A DNA stretch of 64,000 nt from Escherichia coli (GTDB lineage Bacteria > Pseudomonadota > Gammaproteobacteria > Enterobacterales > Enterobacteriaceae). The notes below the pieces were generated by a model. That model did no database searches and was not told the DNA's origin. It saw nothing but the letters and a program-made list of their open reading frames with translations. Shown one piece after another: positions 23,687 to 62,928 of the stretch. The stretch lies in NCBI RefSeq assembly GCF_030013595.1, contig NZ_CP122768.1; one strand, written 5' to 3'. Numbering within the stretch: position 1 is the first letter of the stretch; every line of letters begins with the position of its first letter. The translations under genes and the position numbers were made by a program.

Positions 23687-26600
23687 TCAGTACCTCCCGT
23701 TAGGAACAGAAAATCCAGGCAAACGCCTTAGATTTTCCCACGATTCAGGGAAGTGAGTTAAGATCACTGGTGTTTTCCCTATCTGACTTGTTGCAGTAAA
23801 CAAACCTGTTTCAGGATCATAATAGCCTACTCTAGGTTTATTCGTATACCTATCTCTATAAGTAAATTTCCTGCCATTTTGTATCGTGGTTCTTGCACTA
23901 ATATCATATTCTTTTACTGAATTTGCACCGACTTGTGAGCCATGTTTTTCAAAGTGATCTCTTAGGCCCGGCCCATCAACATTTTGTCGTGCTTTATTCC
24001 ATTTTGCATTTTTAGCCGTACCACAAAATAACCCAAGCGGATCGATCCAGCTTAACGGATTTGGCACATAAGCATAGAGGTTCAGCCCACCGTTTAATCC
24101 TATCGGGTCCGTTACCATGAACCGCCCGACATCCGGATCATAGTACCTGTGCAGATTGTAATGCAGCCCCGTTTCCCTGTCGAGGTACTGTCCCTGGTAG
24201 CGCAGGTTCTGCTCCACCCCGCCGTGGTCCTTCTCCTGTATCGTGTTACCCCAGACCTGATACCCCGTCTCCCACACGATTTTCCCGTCGCTGTCCGTCA
24301 TCTCTTCCGGCGCGCCGTTCACATCCGTGTGAAAATACAGTATCCGGTTCGGGCCCTCTTTGCCCGCCTTATCCACCCGCGCCAGCGGTTCATAACTCCC
24401 CGGGTCCCTGTAGATGTACAGGCTGTCTGTTCCCTCCGGCCTGCTCTCCTGCGCCAGCCGCATTCCGTCCCATAAAAATTTTGTCCGGTTGTACGGTTTA
24501 CCGTCAGGACTGATGTGCTGTTTTTCCGTCCGCCTCCCCAGCGCATCGTACACATACCGGTACGTCCCCCGCGCTGTCGTCACTTCCACCATCCGGTGTT
24601 CCGCATCATAACGGTAACTCTGCGTGCCGCTCCGCCCCTCCTTTTCCACCGCACGGCCAAATTCGTCGTAACGGTAGTGCACACCACGGTAAGACATCAG
24701 CCGGTTGAACGGCACCACGCTGTTTTCTGCCGTGGCCCTTTCCCCCGCGCGCCGCGCCAGCAGGTTTCCCGCCGCGTCGTACTGCCAGCTCGCCAGATAC
24801 CCCTCATCCTCCGAGCGGCACGCCGTGATGCGCCCCGTGGGGTCGTAGAAGTAATCCGTTTCCCCCCGCCGGCTGTGCCGCGTCTTCAGCAGTTCATCCT
24901 CGCCACTGTAGCTGTACTGCCGGTCCGTGAACGTCTCCGGTACCCCCCCGCGCATCCCGCTGTATGTCTCCCTGCGCTTCAGCCGCCCGCCGGGGTCGTA
25001 AAGCTGCCGCGTGCTCAGTCGCCCCTGGCTTCTGAGCACTTCACGGTGCAGGGCGTCACGTGTGAACTCGCTGATGACCTCCCGGTCCAGATTTATCTGC
25101 TGGAGATGGCCGCTGCCGTAGTACAGATGACGCTGCGTTCTGCCGTCCGGAAAGGTGGTGGCTGTCCGGTTGCTGAGTTCATCGTACTGATGGGTCAGGA
25201 CGCCCTGCGCCGTCTCCTCAGTCAGCATCCGCCCCAGTCTGTCGTAACTGAAGCGGATAATCTCCGGTGCGTCTGTTTCCCCGGCATCCGACCGTCGGCG
25301 GCGGATTTCCAGTAGCTGGTCTGCCGCATCATGGACGTATTCCGTACGGCTATCGGCTGTCTCCTTTGCCGTAAGCCGGCCCGCCGCATCACGTGCCAGC
25401 CGATGGCGGATTTCACCGCCCCGGTCCCCGGTGAACACCACTTCCGTGACCGCGTTCAGCGCGTTGTAGCGGTACGTCTGGCGGCAGCCGTCCGGATTTA
25501 TCTGCTCCGCCAGACGGTCCAGCACATCATGGCGGAACCGGTAGCTTTCTCCGTTCTCGTTTGTCAGCGTGACCAGACGCCCGTAAGCATCGTACCCGAA
25601 TGCCGTCCTGCGCCCCGTCGCGTCCGTCCGGCTGCGCACCCGGCCCTGCCCGTCCCGCTGCCAGCGCGTTATCCTCCCCATCGGGCTGGTGTACTTCACC
25701 AGCCTGCCCGCCGCGTCCGACTGGTAATTCACCGTGCGGCCGTCCGCCAGTATCACCTCCGTCAGGTGGCCGCTGTCGTCATACCCGTAGCGCGTGCTGT
25801 GGCTCTGCGCGTCTGTCATCCGTATCAGCCGCGTGCGTTCGTCGTAGAACCAGGCCGTCTGCGAGCCGGAACAGTCCGTGTGCCGCATGAGCTGCCCGTC
25901 TTCGTTCCACTGAAGGTATTTATTCCCCCCGCGCGCATCGGTTATCTGCACCACCTGGCCGTGGCGGTCATACTGATACCGGGTGTTCTGCTGCAGCGGG
26001 TCGGTCACCGCAAGAAGATTGCCGCGTTCATCGTACTCACAGCACCAGCTGTTCCCCGCCGCGTCCACCTCCGTTTCCGGCTGGTGCCACACCGGGTGCC
26101 ACTGTGTCTGTGCCACCCGCCCCAGCGGGTCGTGCGTCTCCGTGATATGCCCCTGCCGGTCATACACATAGCGCCATTTGCCGCCCTGCGCATCGGTCAT
26201 TCCCAGTAACAGCCGTTCTTCGTCGCTCCAGCGGAACGTCGTCACCTGCCCGGCTTCGTCCTGGTACGCCGTCACCTGGTTCTGCGCGTCCCACTGATGA
26301 TAACGCGTGCGCCCCAGCCCGTCCGTCACGCACAGCCTGCGTGACGCCAGGCTCCACGCCAGCCGGTACTGTTCACCGCTGTCCGTGTGGTGCCCCGTCA
26401 CCCGCCACGCTGCGTCATCCGGGCCTTCATACCAGCCCCACTGGTAATAATACCCTTCGCCGCCCGGCTGGCGGTGCAGGGTCATGCAGTGGTTTTCGTC
26501 GTAAGCAAACTCGCGCAGCAGGTGTCCCGTGCTGTCGTACACGCCGTTCAGGTCGCCGGCCTCGTCATAGCGGTAACGACGCAGCAGTAAAGGAGCCGTC

Positions 26601-28339
26601 TCAGGGAAATGCTGATAAATCTGTGTCACCCGCCGGGGATGCGCCGCCAGTTCATAATGCAGACGGATGCACGGACGCTGCTGTTCACCGCTGATTTGCG
26701 TGATGCGCCCCAGCTCGTCGTAGTACAGATTCAGACAGTTGCTGTTGCGGTCGCCCAGCATTTTCAGCCGCTGGCGCTGCGGGTGATGCGGGTCGGCCTC
26801 AAACAGAAAAAACTGCCCGTCATCGCTGCTGATAAGCCAGTGCCCCTGCTCACCCCGCCTTACCGCCAGTCCTTCGCCGGGGCTGTAAAACCCGCTCCCC
26901 GGCAGCACGGCCTCCATATCCAGGCGTCGTCCCATGCCCGACACAAAGGTCATACAGTTTTCGTCAGCAGTACCCGGCGTGCGCTCGAGGCTGACTTCAT
27001 ACATCACGCTCCAGCCCTGCCCGAACATCCCTTCCGTGCGGTCGTCACGACTGCTGTACACGCGCTGCCAGTCCAGCGGAAAGTGGCCCGGCAGACTGAA
27101 ATCGAAGTCATCGTCATCCGCCAGATATTTGGCTCCGGTGGCGGCATTGACCGGATGCGGAAGGGCACTGATGGCCTTCTGCGTCATCACCCCCATCCCG
27201 ACACTGGCAGCAAAACAGGCGATTTTAGAAAGCATTTTGCCCGGGCGAAGAAACATCAGCGCCACAGTTGCCACCAGGGTTATCTGCGACCTGCCGCTTC
27301 TGATATCCCTGACCACCAGTAACGGACCGCCAATGCGGACATCCGGTGACACAAACGCCCCGTTCCCCGGCTCATTCACCACCCAGGCCTCGCAGGTGCA
27401 GCGTGCCCCGCTGCGTGCCGCCGGCTGGCTGTTGATACGCACATCCCGCGCGCCTTCCGCGATATATTCCGCTGCGGGCGGTTCATCATCGCCTTTGAAC
27501 AGATTACTGATGCTGCCAATAACCGCATTCACTCCCTGAAAGGCGGTTTCCAGCATACCGCCCGGACTCAGCAGGTTAAGGGCCGTTCCCAGAGGGTCAT
27601 CCAGAAAGGCGGCTTTTTTTTGTGCGAGAAACTGCGTCAGTGAGGAGGGATGTTTATGGCAGTCGATTTTATCGTCAGGGGTCGGGGTGGAGCCCGGGGC
27701 CGCACTGGCCACGGTGGGCTGCCATAGTTCCGACACAAAATGTGTCACGCCATCCACCATTTCAGAACGCCCTTCTTCCGTACTGAGCTGGTCATGCAGC
27801 GCCCGGGACATCAGCACAGGCCCTGTCACCGGGTTAACCGCCAGGGCTATGGCCCCCGCCATTTCCAGATATTCCCCGGCCACATCCCGGAACGTTCTGG
27901 CGTCCTCCTGACGCTGCGCTTCTTCCTGTTCCGCCTTCGCCTGTGCCTCCTGCGCCTCAATGTCCTGCCGCGATGCCGCAGTCGCCGCTGCCCGCGCGGC
28001 AGGTTTGCTGTTGATCCATGTGTCGCCAGAGCCGGTGAGGATGTAACCTTCAATCTGAGGCGGGAAAAGCCAGTTCGCCAGTTGCTCACTTTCCCTACTG
28101 ATTCGGTCATTCCAGCCCTGATACGACATAAATACCGCTGTTGCTATACCGATCGCTAAAATGGTTGAGCAGCCCAGCGTTGCCACTTCAACTCCGCCCA
28201 GCGCCGCCATGGTTCCGACAACCAGAACATCCACCAGGGCTGTGGCGGCAACCTCTACAACTGCCCCCAGCACATCTGCCATAAACGACGTATGCAGCAG
28301 GGCATCACCCTGCCTTGCCGCCCAGAATGCCTCTTCCAT
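23687..28339 (-). CDS. Rhs-family polymorphic toxin: prePAAR motif and hydrophobic segments, PAAR-like region, YD-repeat core, DPxGL motifs, variable C-terminal toxin domain
   Basis: ORF track 1550 aa; N-terminal AARQGDALLH (AARxxDxxxH) then hydrophobic stretches; many YD/RYxYD repeats; VTDPIGLNGG...PNPLSWIDPLGL followed by a ~113-aa basic tail; occupies the K-12 rhsC position but differs from K-12 RhsC at both termini. Confidence 0.92.
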   Translation of the reverse strand: MEEAFWAARQGDALLHTSFMADVLGAVVEVAATALVDVLVVGTMAALGGVEVATLGCSTILAIGIATAVFMSYQGWNDRISRESEQLANWLFPPQIEGYILTGSGDTWINSKPAARAAATAASRQDIEAQEAQAKAEQEEAQRQEDARTFRDVAGEYLEMAGAIALAVNPVTGPVLMSRALHDQLSTEEGRSEMVDGVTHFVSELWQPTVASAAPGSTPTPDDKIDCHKHPSSLTQFLAQKKAAFLDDPLGTALNLLSPGGMLETAFQGVNAVIGSISNLFKGDDEPPAAEYIAEGARDVRINSQPAARSGARCTCEAWVVNEPGNGAFVSPDVRIGGPLLVVRDIRSGRSQITLVATVALMFLRPGKMLSKIACFAASVGMGVMTQKAISALPHPVNAATGAKYLADDDDFDFSLPGHFPLDWQRVYSSRDDRTEGMFGQGWSVMYEVSLERTPGTADENCMTFVSGMGRRLDMEAVLPGSGFYSPGEGLAVRRGEQGHWLISSDDGQFFLFEADPHHPQRQRLKMLGDRNSNCLNLYYDELGRITQISGEQQRPCIRLHYELAAHPRRVTQIYQHFPETAPLLLRRYRYDEAGDLNGVYDSTGHLLREFAYDENHCMTLHRQPGGEGYYYQWGWYEGPDDAAWRVTGHHTDSGEQYRLAWSLASRRLCVTDGLGRTRYHQWDAQNQVTAYQDEAGQVTTFRWSDEERLLLGMTDAQGGKWRYVYDRQGHITETHDPLGRVAQTQWHPVWHQPETEVDAAGNSWCCEYDERGNLLAVTDPLQQNTRYQYDRHGQVVQITDARGGNKYLQWNEDGQLMRHTDCSGSQTAWFYDERTRLIRMTDAQSHSTRYGYDDSGHLTEVILADGRTVNYQSDAAGRLVKYTSPMGRITRWQRDGQGRVRSRTDATGRRTAFGYDAYGRLVTLTNENGESYRFRHDVLDRLAEQINPDGCRQTYRYNALNAVTEVVFTGDRGGEIRHRLARDAAGRLTAKETADSRTEYVHDAADQLLEIRRRRSDAGETDAPEIIRFSYDRLGRMLTEETAQGVLTHQYDELSNRTATTFPDGRTQRHLYYGSGHLQQINLDREVISEFTRDALHREVLRSQGRLSTRQLYDPGGRLKRRETYSGMRGGVPETFTDRQYSYSGEDELLKTRHSRRGETDYFYDPTGRITACRSEDEGYLASWQYDAAGNLLARRAGERATAENSVVPFNRLMSYRGVHYRYDEFGRAVEKEGRSGTQSYRYDAEHRMVEVTTARGTYRYVYDALGRRTEKQHISPDGKPYNRTKFLWDGMRLAQESRPEGTDSLYIYRDPGSYEPLARVDKAGKEGPNRILYFHTDVNGAPEEMTDSDGKIVWETGYQVWGNTIQEKDHGGVEQNLRYQGQYLDRETGLHYNLHRYYDPDVGRFMVTDPIGLNGGLNLYAYVPNPLSWIDPLGLFCGTAKNAKWNKARQNVDGPGLRDHFEKHGSQVGANSVKEYDISARTTIQNGRKFTYRDRYTNKPRVGYYDPETGLFTATSQIGKTPVILTHFPESWENLRRLPGFSVPNGRY

Positions 28340-37900: not shown

Positions 37901-38005
37901 ATGGAAAATAATAACCGCTTAATGCCTCATATAAGGCGGACAACCCATATCATGAAGTTTGCCCATCGTAATAGTTTTGACTTTCATTTCTTTAATGCCC
38001 GCTAG
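37901..38005 (+). CDS. speFL: speF leader peptide (ornithine-sensing arrest peptide)
   Basis: Hand-translated 34-codon ORF MENNNRLMPHIRRTTHIMKFAHRNSFDFHFFNAR, about 310 bp upstream of speF; below the 60-aa ORF-track cut-off. Confidence 0.75.
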   Translation: MENNNRLMPHIRRTTHIMKFAHRNSFDFHFFNAR

Positions 38006-40514: not shown

Positions 40515-41830
40515 GTCAGGCTAAATCGAACAAAATGGGCGTCGTTCAGTTAACCATACTGACGATGGTCAACATGATGGGCTCCGGTATCATCATGCTG
40601 CCGACAAAGCTTGCCGAAGTTGGGACAATTTCAATTATCTCCTGGCTGGTGACAGCCGTAGGCTCAATGGCACTGGCATGGGCATTCGCAAAATGCGGTA
40701 TGTTCAGCCGTAAATCAGGCGGTATGGGCGGTTATGCGGAGTATGCTTTCGGTAAATCCGGGAACTTTATGGCGAACTATACCTACGGCGTCTCACTGCT
40801 AATTGCTAACGTCGCGATTGCTATTTCGGCGGTTGGTTACGGCACCGAACTGCTCGGCGCGAGTTTGTCGCCAGTGCAGATTGGTCTTGCGACCATCGGG
40901 GTGCTGTGGATTTGTACCGTGGCTAACTTTGGTGGTGCGCGCATTACCGGGCAAATCAGTAGCATTACCGTGTGGGGGGTCATTATTCCGGTGGTAGGCC
41001 TGTGCGTTATCGGCTGGTTCTGGTTTAGCCCGACGCTTTACGTTGATTCCTGGAATCCGCATCATGCACCGTTCTTCAGTGCGGTAGGTTCTTCCATCGC
41101 TATGACGCTGTGGGCTTTTCTTGGTCTGGAGTCTGCGTGTGCGAATACTGATGTAGTGGAAAACCCGGAACGTAATGTGCCAATCGCGGTACTCGGCGGT
41201 ACGTTAGGTGCGGCGGTGATTTATATCGTCTCCACCAACGTGATTGCAGGGATTGTGCCTAATATGGAGCTGGCAAATTCAACGGCACCATTTGGCCTGG
41301 CCTTCGCACAGATGTTCACGCCAGAAGTGGGTAAAGTCATTATGGCGCTGATGGTGATGTCCTGCTGCGGTTCGCTGCTTGGCTGGCAGTTCACCATTGC
41401 CCAGGTGTTTAAATCTTCATCTGATGAAGGCTACTTCCCTAAAATTTTCTCCCGTGTAACCAAAGTGGATGCACCGGTGCAGGGAATGTTGACCATTGTG
41501 ATTATCCAGAGCGGGTTGGCGCTGATGACGATTAGCCCGTCGCTAAACAGTCAGTTCAACGTGCTGGTTAACCTGGCCGTGGTGACCAATATCATTCCGT
41601 ATATTCTGTCAATGGCGGCATTAGTCATTATTCAGAAGGTCGCTAATGTGCCCCCCTCAAAAGCGAAAGTTGCAAACTTTGTTGCTTTTGTTGGCGCGAT
41701 GTACAGCTTTTATGCGCTGTACTCATCCGGGGAAGAAGCCATGCTATACGGTTCCATCGTGACCTTCCTCGGTTGGACACTGTATGGTCTGGTCTCACCA
41801 CGCTTTGAACTGAAAAATAAACACGGTTAA
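40511..41830 (+). CDS. potE: putrescine-ornithine antiporter
   Basis: ORF track 439 aa MSQAKSNKMGVVQLTILTMVNMMGSGIIML...; ATGA overlap with speF stop. Confidence 0.97.
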   Translation: MSQAKSNKMGVVQLTILTMVNMMGSGIIMLPTKLAEVGTISIISWLVTAVGSMALAWAFAKCGMFSRKSGGMGGYAEYAFGKSGNFMANYTYGVSLLIANVAIAISAVGYGTELLGASLSPVQIGLATIGVLWICTVANFGGARITGQISSITVWGVIIPVVGLCVIGWFWFSPTLYVDSWNPHHAPFFSAVGSSIAMTLWAFLGLESACANTDVVENPERNVPIAVLGGTLGAAVIYIVSTNVIAGIVPNMELANSTAPFGLAFAQMFTPEVGKVIMALMVMSCCGSLLGWQFTIAQVFKSSSDEGYFPKIFSRVTKVDAPVQGMLTIVIIQSGLALMTISPSLNSQFNVLVNLAVVTNIIPYILSMAALVIIQKVANVPPSKAKVANFVAFVGAMYSFYALYSSGEEAMLYGSIVTFLGWTLYGLVSPRFELKNKHG

Positions 41831-41842
41831 TTAAGCAAAGCA

Positions 41843-41874
41843 AAAAAGGGCGATCTTCCGACCGCCCTTTTTCT
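41843..41874. terminator. bidirectional rho-independent terminator between potE and pgm
   Basis: AAAAAAGGGCG ... CGCCCTTTTTCTT hairpin flanked by A-run and T-run in the 56-bp convergent gap. Confidence 0.65.
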
Positions 41875-41886
41875 TATTTAATGTGT

Positions 41887-43527
41887 TTACGCGTTTTTCA
41901 GAACTTCGCTAACAATCTCAACCGCTTCTTTCTCGATCTGCTTGCGATGCTCTTCACCGAGGAAGCTTTCGCAATAAATCTTGTACGCGTCTTCCGTGCC
42001 TGACGGACGCGCGGCGAACCAGCCGTTGTCAGTCATCACTTTCAGACCGCCAATAGAAGCACCGTTGCCCGGAGCAGCAGTCAGGCGTGCGGTGATCGGG
42101 TCACCTGCCAGGGTGCTGGCGCTCACCATTTCCGGAGACAGCTTAGACAGCGCCGCTTTTTGTGCGGAAGTCGCAGCTGCCTGCAAACGGTTGTAGCTCG
42201 GCGCACCAAAGCGTTTTGCCAGTTCGTTGTAGTGTTCCTGCGGGTTCTTACCGGTGACCGCGGTGATTTCTGCCGCCAGCAGACACATAATGATACCGTC
42301 TTTATCGGTTGACCACGGCGTGCCGTCGAAACGCAGGAAGGAAGCCCCTGCGCTCTCTTCGCCGCCAAAGCCGAAGCTGCCGTCGAACAGACCATCAACA
42401 AACCATTTGAAACCTACCGGGACTTCTACCAGCTTACGGCCCAAGTCATTGACCACACGGTCGATCATCGCAGATGAAACCAGCGTTTTACCGACAGCAA
42501 CATCTTTGCCCCACTGCGGACGATGCTGGAACAGGTAGTTGATCGCCACCGCCAGGTAGTGGTTCGGATTCATCAAACCTGCCGGAGTGACGATACCGTG
42601 ACGGTCATAATCCGGGTCGTTAGCAAACGCCAGATCGAACTTATCACGCAGTGCCAGCAGACCCGCCATCGCACACTCGGAGGAGCAGTCCATACGGATC
42701 GCACCGTCTTTATCGAGGTGCATAAAGCGGAAGGTTTGATCGACCTGATCGTTAACGATGGTCAGGTTGAGGTTGTAATACTCGCCAATGCGCTTCCAGT
42801 ATTCGATACCGGAACCACCCAGCGGATCAACGCCCAGCGTCAGGCCCGCTTTCTGAATCGCCGCCATATCAACGATATCGGCCAGCCCTTCCACAAACGG
42901 CTGCACCAGATCCTGCTCTTTCACATGACCGGATGCCATCGCTTCGTCGAGGGAGATACGCTTCACGCCTTTCAGGCCATCAGCCAGCAGTGCGTTGGCT
43001 CTGTCTTCCACCACTTTAGTGACGTTGGTATCAGCCGGGCCACCATTTGGCGGATTGTACTTGATACCACCATCTTCCGGCGGGTTATGGGACGGTGTAA
43101 TCACGATACCGTCTGCCAGCGGGCCACCTTTTTTATTGTGAACCAGGATGGCATTGGAAACGGCAGGCGTCGGAGTGAAGCCATTGTTTTCCTGCACAAT
43201 AACATCTACGCCGTTCGCTGCCAGCACTTCCAGTACGGAAATGAACGCAGGCTCGGACAGGGCGTGAGTATCTTTACCCACATAGCAAGGGCCAGTGATG
43301 CCGTTTTTCGCACGTTCTTCAGCAATTGCCTGAGCGATCGCCAGAATGTGCGGCTCGTTAAAGCTGTGGCGCGCTGCACTGCCACGGTGACCGGAAGTAC
43401 CGAATTTCACCGCGTGCTCCGCATTCCCTGCTTCTGGTTTCAGTACATAATATTGCGCCGTCAGTTGGGCGACGTTAATCAAATCACTCTGTTGTGCAGG
43501 TTGGCCTGCACGATTGTGGATTGCCAT
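41887..43527 (-). CDS. pgm: phosphoglucomutase
   Basis: Within ORF 41887..43578; start at [16 protein letters not shown] (ATG 43525-43527), 546 aa; TSGHRG phosphoserine-loop-like motif present. Confidence 0.95.
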
Positions 43528-44282: not shown

Positions 44283-45047
44283 ATGAAATTGAATATCCGC
44301 GCGCAAACTGCACAAAACCAGCACAATAATTCTCCCATCGTTCTTGTCCATGGTCTGTTTGGTAGCCTCGACAACCTTGGCGTACTGGCTCGCGATCTGG
44401 TAAACGATCACAATATCATCCTGGTTGATATGCGTAACCACGGTCTTTCACCGAGAGATCCGGTGATGAATTACCCGGCGATGGCGCAGGATCTTGTTGA
44501 TACCCTGGATGCACTGCAGATCGACAAAGCAACATTTATCGGTCACTCCATGGGCGGTAAAGCGGTAATGGCACTTACTGCACTGGCCCCCGATCGCATC
44601 GATAAACTGGTGGCGATCGATATCGCACCGGTCGACTATCACGTACGCCGGCATGATGAGATTTTCGCGGCCATCAACGCAGTCAGTGAATCGGACGCAC
44701 AAACTCGCCAGCAAGCAGCAGCAATAATGCGCCAGCATCTTAATGAAGAAGGGGTGATTCAGTTTCTGCTGAAATCTTTTGTTGACGGGGAGTGGCGCTT
44801 TAACGTGCCGGTATTGTGGGATCAGTATCCGCATATTGTGGGTTGGGAGAAAATCCCGGCCTGGGATCACCCTGCCCTGTTTATCCCAGGCGGCAACTCT
44901 CCGTATGTTAGCGAGCAGTACCGTGATGATTTACTGGCACAATTTCCACAGGCACGGGCGCATGTGATTGCAGGCGCGGGTCACTGGGTCCATGCTGAAA
45001 AACCGGATGCGGTATTACGCGCTATCCGTCGCTATCTCAATGATTAA
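44283..45047 (+). CDS. ybfF: alpha/beta-hydrolase esterase
   Basis: ORF track 254 aa MKLNIRAQTAQNQHNNSPIVLVHGLFGS..., GHSMGG nucleophile elbow. Confidence 0.93.
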   Translation: MKLNIRAQTAQNQHNNSPIVLVHGLFGSLDNLGVLARDLVNDHNIILVDMRNHGLSPRDPVMNYPAMAQDLVDTLDALQIDKATFIGHSMGGKAVMALTALAPDRIDKLVAIDIAPVDYHVRRHDEIFAAINAVSESDAQTRQQAAAIMRQHLNEEGVIQFLLKSFVDGEWRFNVPVLWDQYPHIVGWEKIPAWDHPALFIPGGNSPYVSEQYRDDLLAQFPQARAHVIAGAGHWVHAEKPDAVLRAIRRYLND

Positions 45048-47344: not shown

Positions 47345-48209
47345 TCAGAAGATGGTGAATGGTGCGATTACCATGAATTTCACGTCGCGCTCATCCTGGA
47401 AAATGTTGCCGTAACCACCGCCCCAGCTTGGGATGTCGGAGTGGTTGTCATATTCGGTGAAATGCAGTTTGAACATCGTGCCCTTGGCGCGACCGTCCTG
47501 AATGGTGTACACCGCATCCAGGCTATATGCAGACTCTTCAATAGTCCGGTTCTTGTCGTAGTACGCATCCGGATTGCTCTGCCAGGTAGCGGGTTTAGCA
47601 TCCCATGCGTAAACGTAGGAAGCGCCGATGGCGAAGCCTGGAAGATTCCAGTTTTTCAGGTCATACATCGCACCGAAGAAGACCGCTTTTTCGCCGTTGG
47701 CGTTGAAGTCAGAACGGTTATCCCACCAGATATCCAGGCGACCGTTCGAGGAAGCGTAGGTTGGAGTCATACGTTGCAGGAAGTATCCCTGCTGACCGTC
47801 GGCTTTAACCCAGGTGCCTTCCAGACGCAAATCCACTACATCAGCCGCCCGGTAACCAAAGGTCAACGCTTGCAGCCAGGCGGTGCCGTCATAAAGATCG
47901 TTGACGCTGCGATCGTCAACTTTATCGCGCGTACCATAGAACTGGTAGCTGGTGGTTAACGGGCTACCGGCGATATCAAATTTGTAGCTGGCTTTGGCAA
48001 AATATTGATCGATATCCCCTTCTGCCTGACCAAATGCCGCTTCCAGTACAAAGTTATTTTTGAAGTCGTACTTCGCACCGATGGAGTGCAGATAATCAAC
48101 TTTGGTGGTTTTATCGTTCTGATAAAACTCATCCATTTCCAGATGCCACGGTGCTTTGTATTCGTTGGTCCACATGTAGGAGAAACTCAAGGCACCAGCA
48201 TCGCCGTAA
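47345..48209 (-). pseudogene. chiP: chiP chitoporin, C-terminal fragment (gene split by IS903-family insertion)
   Basis: Frame reading ...[21 protein letters not shown]... continues the N-terminal fragment exactly across the insertion. Confidence 0.9.
48201..48209. repeat. target-site duplication (left copy), TCGCCGTAA
   Basis: Identical 9-mer at 49267..49275 immediately flanking the other IS end. Confidence 0.9.
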
Positions 48210-48227
48210 GGCTTTGTTGAATAAATC
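48210..48227. repeat. IS903 left terminal inverted repeat
   Basis: GGCTTTGTTGAATAAATC; inverse complement found at 49249..49266. Confidence 0.9.
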
Positions 48228-48286
48228 GAACTTTTGCTGAGTTGAAGGATCAGATCACGCATCCTCCCGACAACACAGACCATTCC

Positions 48287-49210
48287 GTGGCAAAGCAAAA
48301 GTTCAGAATCACCAACTGGTCCACCTACAACAAAGCTCTCATCAACCGTGGCTCCCTCACTTTCTGGCTGGATGATGAAGCGATTCAGGCCTGGTATGAG
48401 TCGGCAACGCCTTCATCACGAGGAAGGCCCCAGCGCTATTCTGATCTCGCCATCACCACCGTTCTGGTGATTAAACGCGTATTCCGGCTGACCCTGCGGG
48501 CTGCGCAGGGCTTTATTGATTCCATTTTTTCTCTGATGAACGTTCCGCTACGCTGCCCGGATTACAGCTGTGTCAGCAGGCGGGCAAAGTCGGTTAATGT
48601 CAGTTTCAAAACGCCCACCCGGGGTGAAATCGCACACCTGGTAATTGATTCCACCGGGCTGAAGGTCTTCGGTGAAGGCGAGTGGAAAGTCAAAAAGCAT
48701 GGCCAGGAACGCCGCCGTATCTGGCGTAAGCTGCATCTCGCCGTTGACAGTAAAACACATGAAATCATCTGCGCTGACCTGTCGCTGAACAACGTTACGG
48801 ACTCAGAGGCCTTCCCCGGGTTAATCCGGCAAACCCACCGGAAAATCAGGTCAGCCGCCGCCGATGGCGCTTACGATACCCGGCTATGTCACGATGAACT
48901 GCGGCGTAAGAAAATCAGCGCGCTTATCCCTCCCCGAAAAGGTGCGGGTTACTGGCCCGGTGAATATGCAGACCGTAACCGTGCAGTGGCTAATCAGCGA
49001 ATGACCGGGAGTAATGCGCGGTGGAAATGGACAACAGATTACAACCGTCGCTCGATAGCGGAAACGGCGATGTACCGGGTAAAACAGCTGTTCGGGGGTT
49101 CACTGACGCTGCGTGACTACGATGGTCAGGTTGCGGAGGCTATGGCCCTGGTACGAGCGCTGAACAAAATGACGAAAGCAGGTATGCCTGAAAGCGTGCG
49201 TATTGCCTGA
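48287..49210 (+). CDS. IS903-family transposase
   Basis: ORF track 48242..49210; GTG at 48287 gives 307 aa beginning [39 protein letters not shown], matching the IS903 transposase as I recall it. Confidence 0.9.
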
Positions 49211-49248
49211 AAACACAACCCGCTACGGGGGAGACTTACCCAAAATCT

Positions 49249-49266
49249 GATTTATTCAACAAAGCC
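49249..49266. repeat. IS903 right terminal inverted repeat
   Basis: GATTTATTCAACAAAGCC, perfect inverse complement of the left repeat. Confidence 0.9.
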
Positions 49267-49275
49267 TCGCCGTAA
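49267..49275. repeat. target-site duplication (right copy), TCGCCGTAA
   Basis: Identical to 48201..48209. Confidence 0.9.
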
Positions 49276-49817
49276 TCAAAATTCGCTCCGGCTTCCGCAC
49301 CCTGATAAGTACCTGGCATAAAGCTCCAGTGCGGCGCTAACAGCGTCTGACCGGTTGGCTGAATATAACCTGCCCTCGCCCAAACCGGACCGTATTTAAA
49401 TTTGGCCGCAGCTTTATACAGGCTTATACCGCTTTTGTCGCCGGACCAGTCTTCGTCATAGGCTTTATTACTTTTTGAAAACGCGATTTCGTTCGGGTGA
49501 GAGCTGTCGCCGTTTTCCGCCATTTCAATCGCCGTAAACGCGGCAATATCAAGGCCGAACATATCAGCAGCATAACCGGACTGAAAATCGAGGTTGGCGT
49601 TCCAGGTGGAGTGAGAAAGGTTGGTTTTGTATTTGTCGCCGTCGGTAACATCTTTACGGTCGCGTTCACGCTGCCAGTAATAGATACCGCCGGTTAAGGT
49701 TGAATCGTCGATGAATCCTTCGGCGCGAGCCTCCGGCATTGCCATAAAGCCCGACATTGCTGTAACACCGGCGATAGCCAGCGCCAGCGTACTACGTTTG
49801 CCACTAAACGTACGCAT
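49267..49817 (-). pseudogene. chiP: chiP chitoporin, N-terminal fragment
   Basis: [32 protein letters not shown]...GANFDYG, then the frame runs into the IS and stops after 10 codons. Confidence 0.9.
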
Positions 49818-50265: not shown

Positions 50266-51930
50266 TTACTCGCCTACTTTCGCCCAGGTATCACGCAGCC
50301 CAACGGTGCGGTTAAATACCGGTTTTTCCGCCGTAGAATGGCGGCTGTCGAGGCAGAAATAACCTTCACGCTCAAACTGGAATGCTTTACCCGCTACCGC
50401 GTCTTTCAGAGACGGTTCAGCAAAGCCCTGTTTGATCACCAGCGATTCCGGGTTAATCACCGACAGGAAATCATCCGCAGCACCTGGGTTCGGCACGCTG
50501 AACAGACGATCGTACAGGCGGATTTCAACCGGCAGCGCATGTGCCGAGCTCACCCAGTGAATAACGCCTTTCACTTTACGACCATCTGCCGGATCTTTGC
50601 TTAAGGTGTCGGCGTCATAAGTACAGAAGATGGTGGTGATATTGCCTTCGGCATCTTTCTCCACGCGTTCTGCCTTAATGACGTAAGCATTACGCAGACG
50701 CACTTCTTTACCCAGCACCAGACGCTTGTACTGCTTGTTAGCTTCTTCGCGGAAATCGGCGCGATCGATCCAAATCTCACCGCTAAACGGCACCTGACGG
50801 CTCCCCATTTCCGGTTTGTTCGGATGGTTCGGCATGGTAACCATTTCACCTTCGCCCTGATAGTTTTCGATAACCAGTTTCACCGGATCGATAACCGCCA
50901 TTGCGCGCGGGGCGTTTTCGTTGAGATCTTCACGGATGCAGGATTCCAGCGACGCCATTTCAATGGTGTTGTCCTGCTTGGTCACGCCGATGCGTTTGCA
51001 GAACTCACGAATAGAAGCCGCAGTGTAACCACGACGACGCAGACCGGAAATGGTCGGCATACGCGGGTCATCCCAGCCTTCAACGTGCTTGTCGGTCACC
51101 AGCAGGTTCAGCTTACGCTTGGACATCACAGTGTATTCCAGATTCAGGCGCGAGAATTCGTACTGGCGCGGGTGAACAGGAATGGTGATGTTGTCCAGCA
51201 CCCAGTCGTACAGGCGACGGTTGTCCTGGAACTCAAGCGTACACAGAGAGTGCGTAATACCTTCCAGCGCATCGCTGATGCAATGGGTGAAGTCGTACAT
51301 CGGGTAGATGCACCACTTGTTGCCAGTCTGGTGGTGTTCAGCAAATTTAATGCGGTACAGCACCGGATCGCGCATTACGATAAATGGCGACGCCATGTCG
51401 ATTTTCGCACGCAGGCAGGCTTTACCTTCTTCAAAACCGCCGGTACGCATTTTCTCGAACAGCGCCAGGTTCTCTTCAACGCTGCGGTCGCGGTACGGGC
51501 TGTTTTTACCCGGCTGCGTCAGGGTGCCGCGGTATTCGCGGATCTGTTCCGGTGTCAGTTCATCAACGTACGCCAGGCCTTTATTGATCAGTTCGATCGC
51601 ATAGGCGTGGAGCTGATCAAAATAATCGGAGGAGTAACGGACGTTACCAGACCAGTGAAAACCTAACCACTCAACGTCGTTTTTGATCGACTCAACATAC
51701 TCGATATCTTCTTTTACCGGGTTAGTGTCGTCGAAACGCAGGTTGCACTGGCCTTTATAGTCCTGGGCGATCCCGAAGTTCAGGCAGATAGATTTCGCAT
51801 GGCCAATATGCAGATAGCCATTCGGCTCCGGCGGGAAACGGGTGTGTACTGTGGTGTGCTTACCACTGGCCAGATCTTCATCGATGATCTGACGAATAAA
51901 GTTAGTCGGGCGGGCTTCTGCCTCACTCAT
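50266..51930 (-). CDS. glnS: glutaminyl-tRNA synthetase
   Basis: ORF track 554 aa [20 protein letters not shown]..., HIGH motif ([14 protein letters not shown]) and VMSKR (KMSK-class) motif. Confidence 0.97.
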
Positions 51931-52092
51931 CGTGGATTCCTCAAAGCGTAAACAACGTATAACGGCGTATGATCTTATAAGCGGGACAGGCTGACAACTG
52001 TTAGTTAGTGAAAATCGAAAATCTCACTGAGATTATGGGGATGATTGATGAAAAAAAAGCGGCAGAGAAGATCTCCACCGCTTGTCATTGTT

Positions 52093-60749: not shown

Positions 60750-60826
60750 GGCTACGTAGCTCAGTTGGTTAGAGCACATCACTCATAATGATGGGGTCAC
60801 AGGTTCGAATCCCGTCGTAGCCACCA
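60750..60826 (+). tRNA. metT: tRNA-Met (elongator, anticodon CAU)
   Basis: 77-nt cloverleaf GGCTACGTAGCTCAGTTGGTTAGAGC...ending CCA; anticodon loop CTCATAA. Confidence 0.95.
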
Positions 60827-60835
60827 TCTTTTTTT

Positions 60836-60920
60836 GCGGGAGTGGCGAAATTGGTAGACGCACCAGATTTAGGTTCTGGCGCCGCAAGGTGTGCGAGTTC
60901 AAGTCTCGCCTCCCGCACCA
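60836..60920 (+). tRNA. leuW: tRNA-Leu (anticodon UAG), long variable arm
   Basis: 85 nt GCGGGAGTGGCGAAATTGGTAGACGC...CTCCCGCACCA; anticodon loop TTTAGGT. Confidence 0.93.
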
Positions 60921-60943
60921 TTCACCAGAAAGCGTTGTACGGA

Positions 60944-61018
60944 TGGGGTATCGCCAAGCGGTAAGGCACCGGTTTTTGATACCGGCATTCCCTGGTTCGA
61001 ATCCAGGTACCCCAGCCA
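60944..61018 (+). tRNA. glnU: tRNA-Gln (anticodon UUG)
   Basis: 75 nt TGGGGTATCGCCAAGCGGTAAGGCACCGG-TTTTTGATA-CCGG...; anticodon TTG. Confidence 0.95.
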
Positions 61019-61052
61019 TCTTCTTCGAGTAAGCGGTTCACCGCCCGGTTAT

Positions 61053-61127
61053 TGGGGTATCGCCAAGCGGTAAGGCACCGGTTTTTGATACCGGCATTCC
61101 CTGGTTCGAATCCAGGTACCCCAGCCA
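61053..61127 (+). tRNA. glnW: tRNA-Gln (anticodon UUG)
   Basis: Identical sequence to glnU. Confidence 0.95.
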
Positions 61128-61142
61128 TCGAAGAAACAATCT

Positions 61143-61219
61143 GGCTACGTAGCTCAGTTGGTTAGAGCACATCACTCATAATGATGGGGTCACAGGTTCG
61201 AATCCCGTCGTAGCCACCA
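61143..61219 (+). tRNA. metU: tRNA-Met (elongator, anticodon CAU)
   Basis: Identical sequence to metT. Confidence 0.95.
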
Positions 61220-61267
61220 AATTCTGAATGTGTCGAATAAGTTCGGCAAATTCACAAACCAATTTGT

Positions 61268-61342
61268 TGGGGTATCGCCAAGCGGTAAGGCACCGGATTC
61301 TGATTCCGGCATTCCGAGGTTCGAATCCTCGTACCCCAGCCA
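61268..61342 (+). tRNA. glnV: tRNA-Gln (anticodon CUG)
   Basis: 75 nt; anticodon stem-loop CCGGA-TTCTGAT-TCCGG. Confidence 0.93.
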
Positions 61343-61379
61343 ATTTATTCAAGACGCTTACCTTGTAAGTGCACCCAGT

Positions 61380-61454
61380 TGGGGTATCGCCAAGCGGTAA
61401 GGCACCGGATTCTAATTCCGGCATTCCGAGGTTCGAATCCTCGTACCCCAGCCA
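61380..61454 (+). tRNA. glnX: tRNA-Gln with anticodon CUA (amber-suppressor allele, supE-type)
   Basis: Identical to the tRNA at 61268..61342 except a single G to A change in the anticodon (TTCTAAT versus TTCTGAT); glnX name assigned by position next to ubiF. Confidence 0.9.
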
Positions 61455-61460
61455 CATTAA

Positions 61461-61490
61461 AAAAGCTCGCTTCGGCGAGCTTTTTGCTTT
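61461..61490 (+). terminator. rho-independent terminator of the tRNA operon
   Basis: AAAAGCTCGC-TTCG-GCGAGCTTTTT. Confidence 0.7.
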
Positions 61491-61499
61491 TCTGCGTTC

Positions 61500-61607: not shown

Positions 61608-62783
61608 CTACAACCCTAACGCATATTTCAGCGCCTGACGTTTCAACACGCCAGCACGCTCCGCCGCCATCAAACCAAGATTACGCACAAAACGCAGCGG
61701 CGGCAGATTATTACTGAATCCGGCATAAAACAGATCCATACCGCTCTGCATAATGAAGTTATCCGCCATGCGCCGCATCTGGTAACGCTTGAGGACAGGA
61801 TAACTGGCCCACGCTTCGCCGTAGCTGCGGGCATTCACCAGAACATCAATCAGGGCATCGACATCACGATAACCAAGATTCACCCCCTGCCCCGCCAGCG
61901 GATGGATGGTATGCGCGGCATCGCCCACCAGCGCAAGCCCCGGCTGCACATACTGCAACGCATGGCGACGCGTCAGCGGAAACGCACCAGCGGCAAGCGG
62001 TGTCACGTAACCCAGACGCGACGGGAAATGCTTCGCGATTTCCGCCTGGAGCTGTGCCATATTCATATTCTGCAACTGGCGAATGCGCGCCGGAGAGTCA
62101 TACCACACCAGCGATGCCCAGTTATCAAACAACGGCAGAAACGCACGCGGTCCGTCCGGGGTAAATTGCTGCCAGGTGCTGTCGCCGGGATCGTTCTCAC
62201 ACTGTACGCTAATCAACATACACGACTGTGCATACTGCCAGGCATGAACGCCAATTCCCGCCATCTGCCGCACCTGCGAATTTGCGCCGTCGGCACCAAT
62301 CACCAGCTTCGCGCGGATCGTTTCACCGCCCTTCAGTTCCAGCTCCTGAAGATCATTATGGCGATGCAGCGCAATCAGCGAGCCTGGCACACGTAACGTT
62401 ACTTTCGGATGCGCTTCCAGCGCCTGCCACAGCGCCTGTTGCAGGACAGTGTTTTCCACCATGTAGCCAAGCAACGGTAGCTTAAGTTCAGCGGCGTCAA
62501 ACACCACATGCGCCGTTTCCCACTCCCACGTTTCCAGTCTGCGGTAAGGATGGCAACGCATAGCCTGTACTGCATCCCAGACCCCTAACCCTTTAAGCAA
62601 TGATACCGAAGCCGCACTAATCGCCGAGATCCGCACGTCCGGCTGGCTGTCAGCGACAAACGGTGCAGGTTGGGCATGTTCGATAACCATTACCGAAAAT
62701 CCGTGCTGAGCCAGTCCCAGCGCCAGTGCGCCGCCGACCATTCCTCCGCCGACAATGGCAATTTCCGTTGGTTGATTTGTCAT
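61608..62783 (-). CDS. ubiF: 3-demethoxyubiquinol 3-hydroxylase (FAD-dependent monooxygenase)
   Basis: Within ORF 61608..62789; start at MTNQPTEIAIVGGGMVGGALA (ATG 62781-62783), 391 aa. Confidence 0.95.
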   Translation of the reverse strand: MTNQPTEIAIVGGGMVGGALALGLAQHGFSVMVIEHAQPAPFVADSQPDVRISAISAASVSLLKGLGVWDAVQAMRCHPYRRLETWEWETAHVVFDAAELKLPLLGYMVENTVLQQALWQALEAHPKVTLRVPGSLIALHRHNDLQELELKGGETIRAKLVIGADGANSQVRQMAGIGVHAWQYAQSCMLISVQCENDPGDSTWQQFTPDGPRAFLPLFDNWASLVWYDSPARIRQLQNMNMAQLQAEIAKHFPSRLGYVTPLAAGAFPLTRRHALQYVQPGLALVGDAAHTIHPLAGQGVNLGYRDVDALIDVLVNARSYGEAWASYPVLKRYQMRRMADNFIMQSGMDLFYAGFSNNLPPLRFVRNLGLMAAERAGVLKRQALKYALGL

Positions 62784-62928
62784 GGTCAATCATCCTGTTA
62801 GCAATATGCTTTAAGTTTACAGGATTTTTACCCCCAAGGGCTGATAACGCTCATACTGGTCACAACGGCAGCAAAGCATTACACTATGCGCCCTGCATTC
62901 CTAGCTACTATTTCGCAAGAGCAAGTCG

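Follow-up and report, generated by a model that had tools for sequence, protein, structure and literature searches.

A candidate supE-type amber-suppressor allele of glnX in a wild, livestock-associated lineage of Escherichia coli

The amber-suppressor allele supE44, also written glnX44(AS), is carried by C600, DH5alpha, DH1, JM109, XL1-Blue, HB101 and other laboratory derivatives of Escherichia coli K-12. It maps to glnX, the copy downstream of glnV, where a G to A change at nucleotide 35 converts the anticodon from CUG to CUA (PMC4444293; PMC11148124). The same CTG to CTA change in glnX has arisen twice independently in E. coli laboratory evolution, where it suppressed TAG mutations in aceE; ribosome profiling of read-through at the aceE TAG gave a ratio of downstream to upstream density of 0.23 with glnX(CUA) versus 0.05 without it (bioRxiv 10.1101/749887). 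For a tRNA identical to the one described here, suppression of UAG in vivo has been shown in K-12 (bioRxiv 10.1101/749887; PMC4444293; PMC11148124).

A further K-12 allele, that of the J53 lineage (24 complete genomes), shares the tRNA backbone and the anticodon change but has a separate origin. In J53 the first CUG copy is mutated; it occupies the glnV position, with metU on one side and the last annotated tRNA-Gln on the other, whereas the gene described below is the second copy, glnX. The J53 CUA gene was located at 901-980 of NZ_CP070962.1 (L028) and is apparently distinct from glnX44. Outside laboratory strains, Marshall and Levy reportedly described amber-suppressor-containing coliforms from natural environments in 1980; that phenotypic work is a precedent for suppressors in non-laboratory bacteria.

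The DNA studied here, referred to as the window, is a stretch of 64,000 nucleotides from E. coli. ARAGORN predicted seven tRNA genes at 60750-61454 on the plus strand, in the order Met, Leu(tag), two Gln(ttg), Met, Gln(ctg) and a gene with the anticodon cta. This arrangement, metT-leuW-glnU-glnW-metU-glnV-glnX between asnB and ubiF, matches the syntenic regions of the pig isolate HCP5S3_I2 and of K-12 C600. The features of the operon and two protein-coding genes are as follows.

50266..51930 (-): glnS, glutaminyl-tRNA synthetase, an intact ORF of 554 aa
60681..60709 (+): putative sigma-70-type operon promoter, TTGACG, 17 nt, CATAAT, then a GC-rich stretch (consensus scan, 10/12 matches)
60750..60826 (+): metT, tRNA-Met(CAU) (ARAGORN; Rfam tRNA model, 71.1 bits)
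60836..60920 (+): leuW, tRNA-Leu(UAG) (ARAGORN; Rfam tRNA model, 57.6 bits)
60944..61018 (+): glnU, tRNA-Gln(UUG), same sequence as glnW (ARAGORN)
61053..61127 (+): glnW, tRNA-Gln(UUG) (ARAGORN)
61143..61219 (+): metU, tRNA-Met(CAU) (ARAGORN)
61268..61342 (+): glnV, wild-type tRNA-Gln(CUG), the kept copy that still reads CAG, one base different from glnX (ARAGORN)
61380..61454 (+): glnX, anticodon CUA, supE-type amber-suppressor tRNA-Gln with an encoded CCA end (ARAGORN, Rfam, predicted fold)
61412..61414 (+): anticodon CTA of glnX; the mutated base is 61414, A here and G in all non-K-12 relatives examined
about 61460..61495 (+): predicted intrinsic terminator of the operon, an 11-bp GC-rich stem followed by a T run (terminator scan)
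61608-62783 (-): ubiF, ending in TAG

Comparison of the two CUG-type genes over 75 nt revealed that 74 bases are the same, the sole change being G to A at gene position 35, which corresponds to position 61414 of the window. The original prediction, that the pair differs at one anticodon base and that the last gene is a supE-type amber-suppressor allele, is thereby confirmed: ARAGORN reads the anticodon of glnX as cta and does not assign CUG to both genes. The genes are nearly equal by the Rfam tRNA model (62.4 bits for glnX and 62.0 bits for glnV), and the same cloverleaf, with a folding energy of -28 kcal/mol and an encoded CCA end, is predicted for both. The full-model Rfam match, the cloverleaf, the CCA end and the promoter and terminator matches suggest that glnX(CUA) is expressible, and alignment shows that C600 and the pig isolate share the promoter sequence unchanged. 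The operon keeps one wild-type CUG gene, glnV at 61268-61342, whose anticodon is CTG. GlnS of the window is identical to that of four relatives, one of which is GCA_030346525.1 (L014, L017, L018 and L019, the accession being that of L017). ARAGORN labels the glnX gene tRNA-Pyl because CUA pairs with UAG; we rejected this assignment, as the gene is tRNA-Gln2 with one base changed and the label follows from the CUA anticodon alone.

The lesion is also the same as that of supE44, as had been proposed. The gene and the base change agree with the published allele (PMC4444293; PMC11148124), the 75-nt tRNA is identical to that of C600, and the 158 bases around the window glnX find perfect matches in C600, DH5alpha, DH1, RR1, NCM3722 and many other K-12 derivatives. 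The window glnX belongs to the supE class on all sequence-level criteria, and a supE44-like phenotype, partial suppression of UAG with glutamine, would be expected by analogy. By descent, however, it is not the K-12 supE44 allele, as its chromosome background and flanking haplotype are different.

To determine how common the CUA allele is, we searched 5,426 complete E. coli genomes with a 55-nt query designed so that all of its 28-mer seeds include the mutated base. Hits came from 157 of them, at one place per genome, and these carriers are K-12 laboratory derivatives: 133 have it in glnX and 24 in glnV (the J53 lineage). With a flank-extended query, which contains an N every ~22 bases so that seeds arise at the allele only, both flanks align in the 133 and only the tRNA aligns in the 24. 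The rows sampled among the 133 all scored 859 bits at 93.8% identity, values in which the K-12 flank differences and the masked bases are counted, and those sampled among the 24 were all J53-type strains. None of the 157 carriers scored above 859 bits, as window-type flanks would, and none has window-like flanks. The CUA allele was found in none of the ~5,270 non-K-12 complete E. coli genomes.

Exact-match searches with a 24-mer spanning the CUA anticodon, GGCACCGGATTCTAATTCCGGCAT, gave no match in metagenome contigs (where the CUG 24-mer had at least 120 matches), in 100,044 species-representative genomes or in viral contigs. The allele is also absent from the approximately 20 related genome loci examined, which have two CTG copies instead; among them is the closest relative whose sequence extends over glnX. 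Given this absence from the non-K-12 genomes and related loci searched, the prior for a real natural allele is low. Many of the CUA carriers are laboratory transconjugants made with C600, EC600 or J53 partners. In the RefSeq (PGAP) annotation of every carrier checked (C600, J53 and the listed matches), the suppressor gene is without a feature and six tRNAs are annotated, not seven; because PGAP omits the gene, suppressor tRNAs are invisible in these annotations.

The 1.2 kb around the operon has no perfect match among complete genomes. The best matches are two isolates from pig faeces in the UK, HCP5S3_I2 and LCP30S3_I5, with one mismatch, and the lone mismatch to HCP5S3_I2 is the anticodon base. 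On a larger scale, the segments 39001-64000 and 1-25000 of the window are 100.0% identical, at the printed precision, to both isolates, except for an insertion of 1,057 bp. These 25-kb searches returned two or three near-identical genomes (the pig isolates), the next-best listed being 97.5-98.7% identical. No K-12 strain is among the matches listed in the 1.2-kb search (at least 99.5% identical) or among the rows listed for the 25-kb searches. When the window, HCP5S3_I2 and C600 were aligned over 2.9 kb, the window and HCP5S3_I2 agreed at all bases but 61414, whereas C600 differed at dozens of sites. The YbfF variant of the window (Q47L) occurs in 44 blocks of public assemblies and belongs to a wild lineage, whose surveillance-type assemblies are nearly identical to the window. 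Neither the K-12 haplotype nor the K-12 chromosome background was found. On this sequence evidence, the window belongs to a wild, pig- or livestock-associated E. coli lineage and not to K-12.

The observation that the background does not resemble reference K-12, made in the original prediction, is therefore upheld by the flanks and by the 25-kb searches, both of which point to the lineage of the pig isolates. One of the features that had been cited for it, the short pgm-potE junction, needs a different reading: the 56-bp gap is real (41830-41887) but recurs in HCP5S3_I2 and the other relatives, and is a lineage feature that many wild E. coli share and not a rearrangement. Another, the IS903-type element in chiP, is the 1,057-bp insertion itself (48210-49266), which divides chiP into fragments at 47345-48298 and 49236-49817. 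It encodes an IS5-family transposase (ORF 48242-49210, plus strand; NCBIfam NF033579, 358 bits) and is bordered by the target-site duplication TCGCCGTAA at 48201-48209 and 49267-49275. Among the assemblies examined, the IS903::chiP junction is shared with GCA_030346525.1 only (contig JAUANJ010000003.1), chiP being intact in the other relatives, and a protein look-up found no record of the truncated ChiP fragment of the window.

Given the analyses presented above, we consider it probable that the glnX allele is a real and independent G to A mutation of the supE type, which would permit partial read-through of UAG with glutamine and was probably favoured by selection because it rescues an amber mutation at some other locus of the genome. 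The original prediction took the allele to imply either a laboratory strain or a sequencing or assembly error. The first of these, in the sense of a K-12-type laboratory strain, is contradicted by the wild-lineage flanks, and the second is possible but, as discussed below, unlikely. It had not considered that the change might have arisen de novo in a lineage from outside the laboratory, and this third option now has the strongest support. We favour a real mutation over an error because exactly such mutations are known to be selected, whereas errors carry no such bias.

If the base were a consensus or base-calling error, the true base at 61414 would be G and both tRNA-Gln(CUG) genes of the strain would be normal. 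This explanation is the main rival, although unlikely. In its favour, all related assemblies covering the site have G and the allele is absent outside K-12 in the collections searched. In addition, one A run is a base shorter in the window and in GCA_030346525.1, and this is a kind of difference that long-read assemblies often get wrong. The run, in the glnS-nagE intergenic region (52044-52051), has 8 bases in these two and 9 in the other assemblies compared, and reflects either real slippage in the IS903-bearing sub-clone or a long-read homopolymer error common to both.

Wherever else it can be checked, however, the window agrees with independent assemblies. Between 37426 and 64000 it differs from HCP5S3_I2 by nine substitutions, one homopolymer length and one insertion, and the substitution listed at 49266 is an alignment-edge artefact at the IS boundary. 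When the remaining eight were polarised against K-12, one proved to be private to HCP5S3_I2 and seven to be derived in the window. Exact 31-mers of the derived alleles other than that at 61414 recur in GCA_026548445.1, GCA_036246605.1, the Logan assembly of SRR30668384, GCA_021649105.1, GCA_030347985.1 and GCA_017839865.1, and there are 0 substitutions relative to GCA_026548445.1 over 20.7 kb. The only base within 34283-64000 that is shared by no related assembly examined is 61414. GCA_017839865.1 shares the window alleles at 62903 and 63543 but has CTG in both glnV and glnX, indicating that the anticodon change is recent.

The differences at 62903 and 63543, which are polymorphisms of the lineage, are transitions at the methylated inner C of Dcm sites (CCTGG to CCTAG and CCTGG to CTTGG, respectively), and both are confirmed in independent assemblies. 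Such a transition is the classic signature of 5-methylcytosine deamination. A further difference from HCP5S3_I2, at 44422, falls on the W of CCWGG. We had suspected from these Dcm-site differences that the window derives from an error-prone long-read assembly, and rejected this since the alleles recur in independent assemblies, including NCBI-assembled ones. Position 61414 itself is outside both Dcm (CCWGG) and Dam (GATC) motifs. As for HCP5S3_I2, its private changes alter the products of glnS, kdpD, pxpA and an RHS gene, resulting in new protein accession numbers. Its glnS has a C to A change at the position matching window 51606, and its Rhs protein is one residue shorter than the 1,550 aa of the window protein (23687-28339). 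These private changes may be assembly errors rather than biology.

The nature of the change itself also argues against an error. Within 34283-64000 there are only two positions, the third anticodon base of glnV and that of glnX, at which one specific substitution creates an amber suppressor, so that a lone private change has odds of roughly 2 in 90,000 of giving a suppressor, 90,000 being about the number of single-base substitutions possible. An isolated random error would have needed to strike one of these two positions with the one specific base. A systematic error that depends on context or methylation is unlikely, as glnV, with the identical 75-nt context, was called G, and mis-mapping between glnV and glnX cannot yield A, because both parental copies have G. 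Chance is thus a poor explanation for 61414, be the change a mutation or an error. Were it an error after all, it would still serve as a caution, as a single miscalled base would have imitated an allele of strong biological meaning.

The same reasoning bears on the idea that the mutation is real but non-adaptive, that is, a recent and mildly deleterious change caught by chance, for example during storage or subculture. None of the relatives examined shares the change with this isolate, and no amber-interrupted gene was found in the window, as this idea would have it. For a neutral private SNP to fall on exactly such a base, with two targets in ~5 Mb, is nevertheless extremely improbable, and the same change has repeatedly been selected where an amber mutation needs rescue. 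We therefore give this explanation little weight.

It is less probable still that the allele was acquired from a K-12 supE44 strain, whether by very short-patch recombination, as in a mating with C600 or EC600, or by allelic replacement or recombineering. The tRNA gene and about 400 bp around it are identical in K-12 supE44 strains, such that a patch of less than about 420 bp would be traceless, and livestock isolates are often mated with C600, EC600 and J53. Against this, the nearest C600 differences upstream, at 61232, 61240 and 61255 in the metU-glnV spacer (about 160-180 bp from the anticodon base), and those downstream, a run from 61671 at the 3' end of ubiF (257 bp from the anticodon base), are all absent from the window. 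That K-12 SNPs this close are missing on both sides argues against inheritance or transduction of the allele from K-12; a K-12-derived patch would have to be shorter than about 420 bp, whereas the segments exchanged in transduction or conjugation are normally kilobases long. No other part of the 64 kb looks K-12-like. A spontaneous G:C to A:T transition is simpler and is documented to recur (bioRxiv 10.1101/749887).

The idea that the source of the window is a laboratory derivative of K-12, or an assembly contaminated with K-12 reads, with supE44 by descent, is refuted by the flanking sequence and background and can be set aside: although 157 of the 157 carriers among complete genomes are K-12 derivatives, the listed matches of at least 99.5% identity include no K-12, there are dozens of differences between C600 and the window within 2.9 kb, and the YbfF variant found in 44 assembly blocks is that of a wild lineage.

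Returning to an independent mutation in glnX as the preferred explanation, we propose that a G to A transition at the third anticodon base, in a wild livestock-associated lineage, converted tRNA-Gln(CUG) to tRNA-Gln(CUA). Transcription of the metT operon from its upstream promoter would include glnX as the final gene and stop at the adjoining terminator, and the transcript would be processed to a normal cloverleaf tRNA with its encoded CCA end. By analogy with supE, GlnRS would be expected to charge glnX(CUA) with glutamine at less than wild-type efficiency, because the changed anticodon base is an identity element. The charged tRNA would then compete with release factor 1 at UAG codons, so that a fraction of ribosomes would insert glutamine and read through. 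Normal decoding of glutamine codons would be kept by glnV(CUG) and the two UUG genes. Charging, suppression and its partial efficiency are here deduced from established supE genetics. The mechanism is already textbook; it is the occurrence that is unusual.

The role of selection is predicted by analogy only, with two known pairs of suppressor and amber mutation as models, supE44 with rpoS(Am) and glnX(CUA) with aceE(Am), in which an amber mutation elsewhere is rescued or tuned. Both models differ from the present case. The laboratory-evolution mutants arose in K-12 MG1655 under paraquat, a defined selection, whereas the identical mutation is found here in a wild lineage. In K-12, supE44 travels with rpoS396(Am), whereas the genes of the window include no such partner: none has an internal in-frame TAG, and the one long ORF split by TAG runs antisense to the Rhs gene. 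Any compensated amber mutation would thus lie elsewhere in the genome. More tentatively, and with somewhat less than even confidence, we suggest that the window represents a naturally circulating livestock clone with a selected glutamine-inserting amber suppressor that rescues or tunes an amber-truncated gene elsewhere, for example that of a global regulator such as rpoS.

Five genes of the window end in TAG and would be extended by read-through: abrB by 8 residues, nei by 7, a Rhs-adjacent ORF of 146 residues by 13, speFL by 4 and ubiF by 26. One of these is a regulatory leader.

37901-38005: speFL leader, ending in TAG

The regulation exerted by speFL depends on ribosome stalling at its stop codon, and an amber suppressor might perturb the control of speF-potE through this TAG. 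If the allele is real, low-level C-terminal extension would be expected more widely, in the products of all genes with a UAG stop, roughly 9% of the total. The strain would also propagate amber-mutant phages and plasmids and would confound tools based on the amber codon.

A real allele would represent a third independent origin of the supE lesion, the earlier two being glnX44 of K-12 and the glnV allele of J53. Of these supE-type origins, it would be the only one detected in our searches that lies outside the K-12 pedigree, and it would predict that the genome contains a hidden amber mutation. The blank RefSeq annotation implies that gene catalogues systematically miss suppressor alleles. If natural and selected, the allele of this livestock-associated E. 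coli would be a counterpart of the suppressors known from the K-12 pedigree and from laboratory evolution, of a kind that is hidden by standard annotation.
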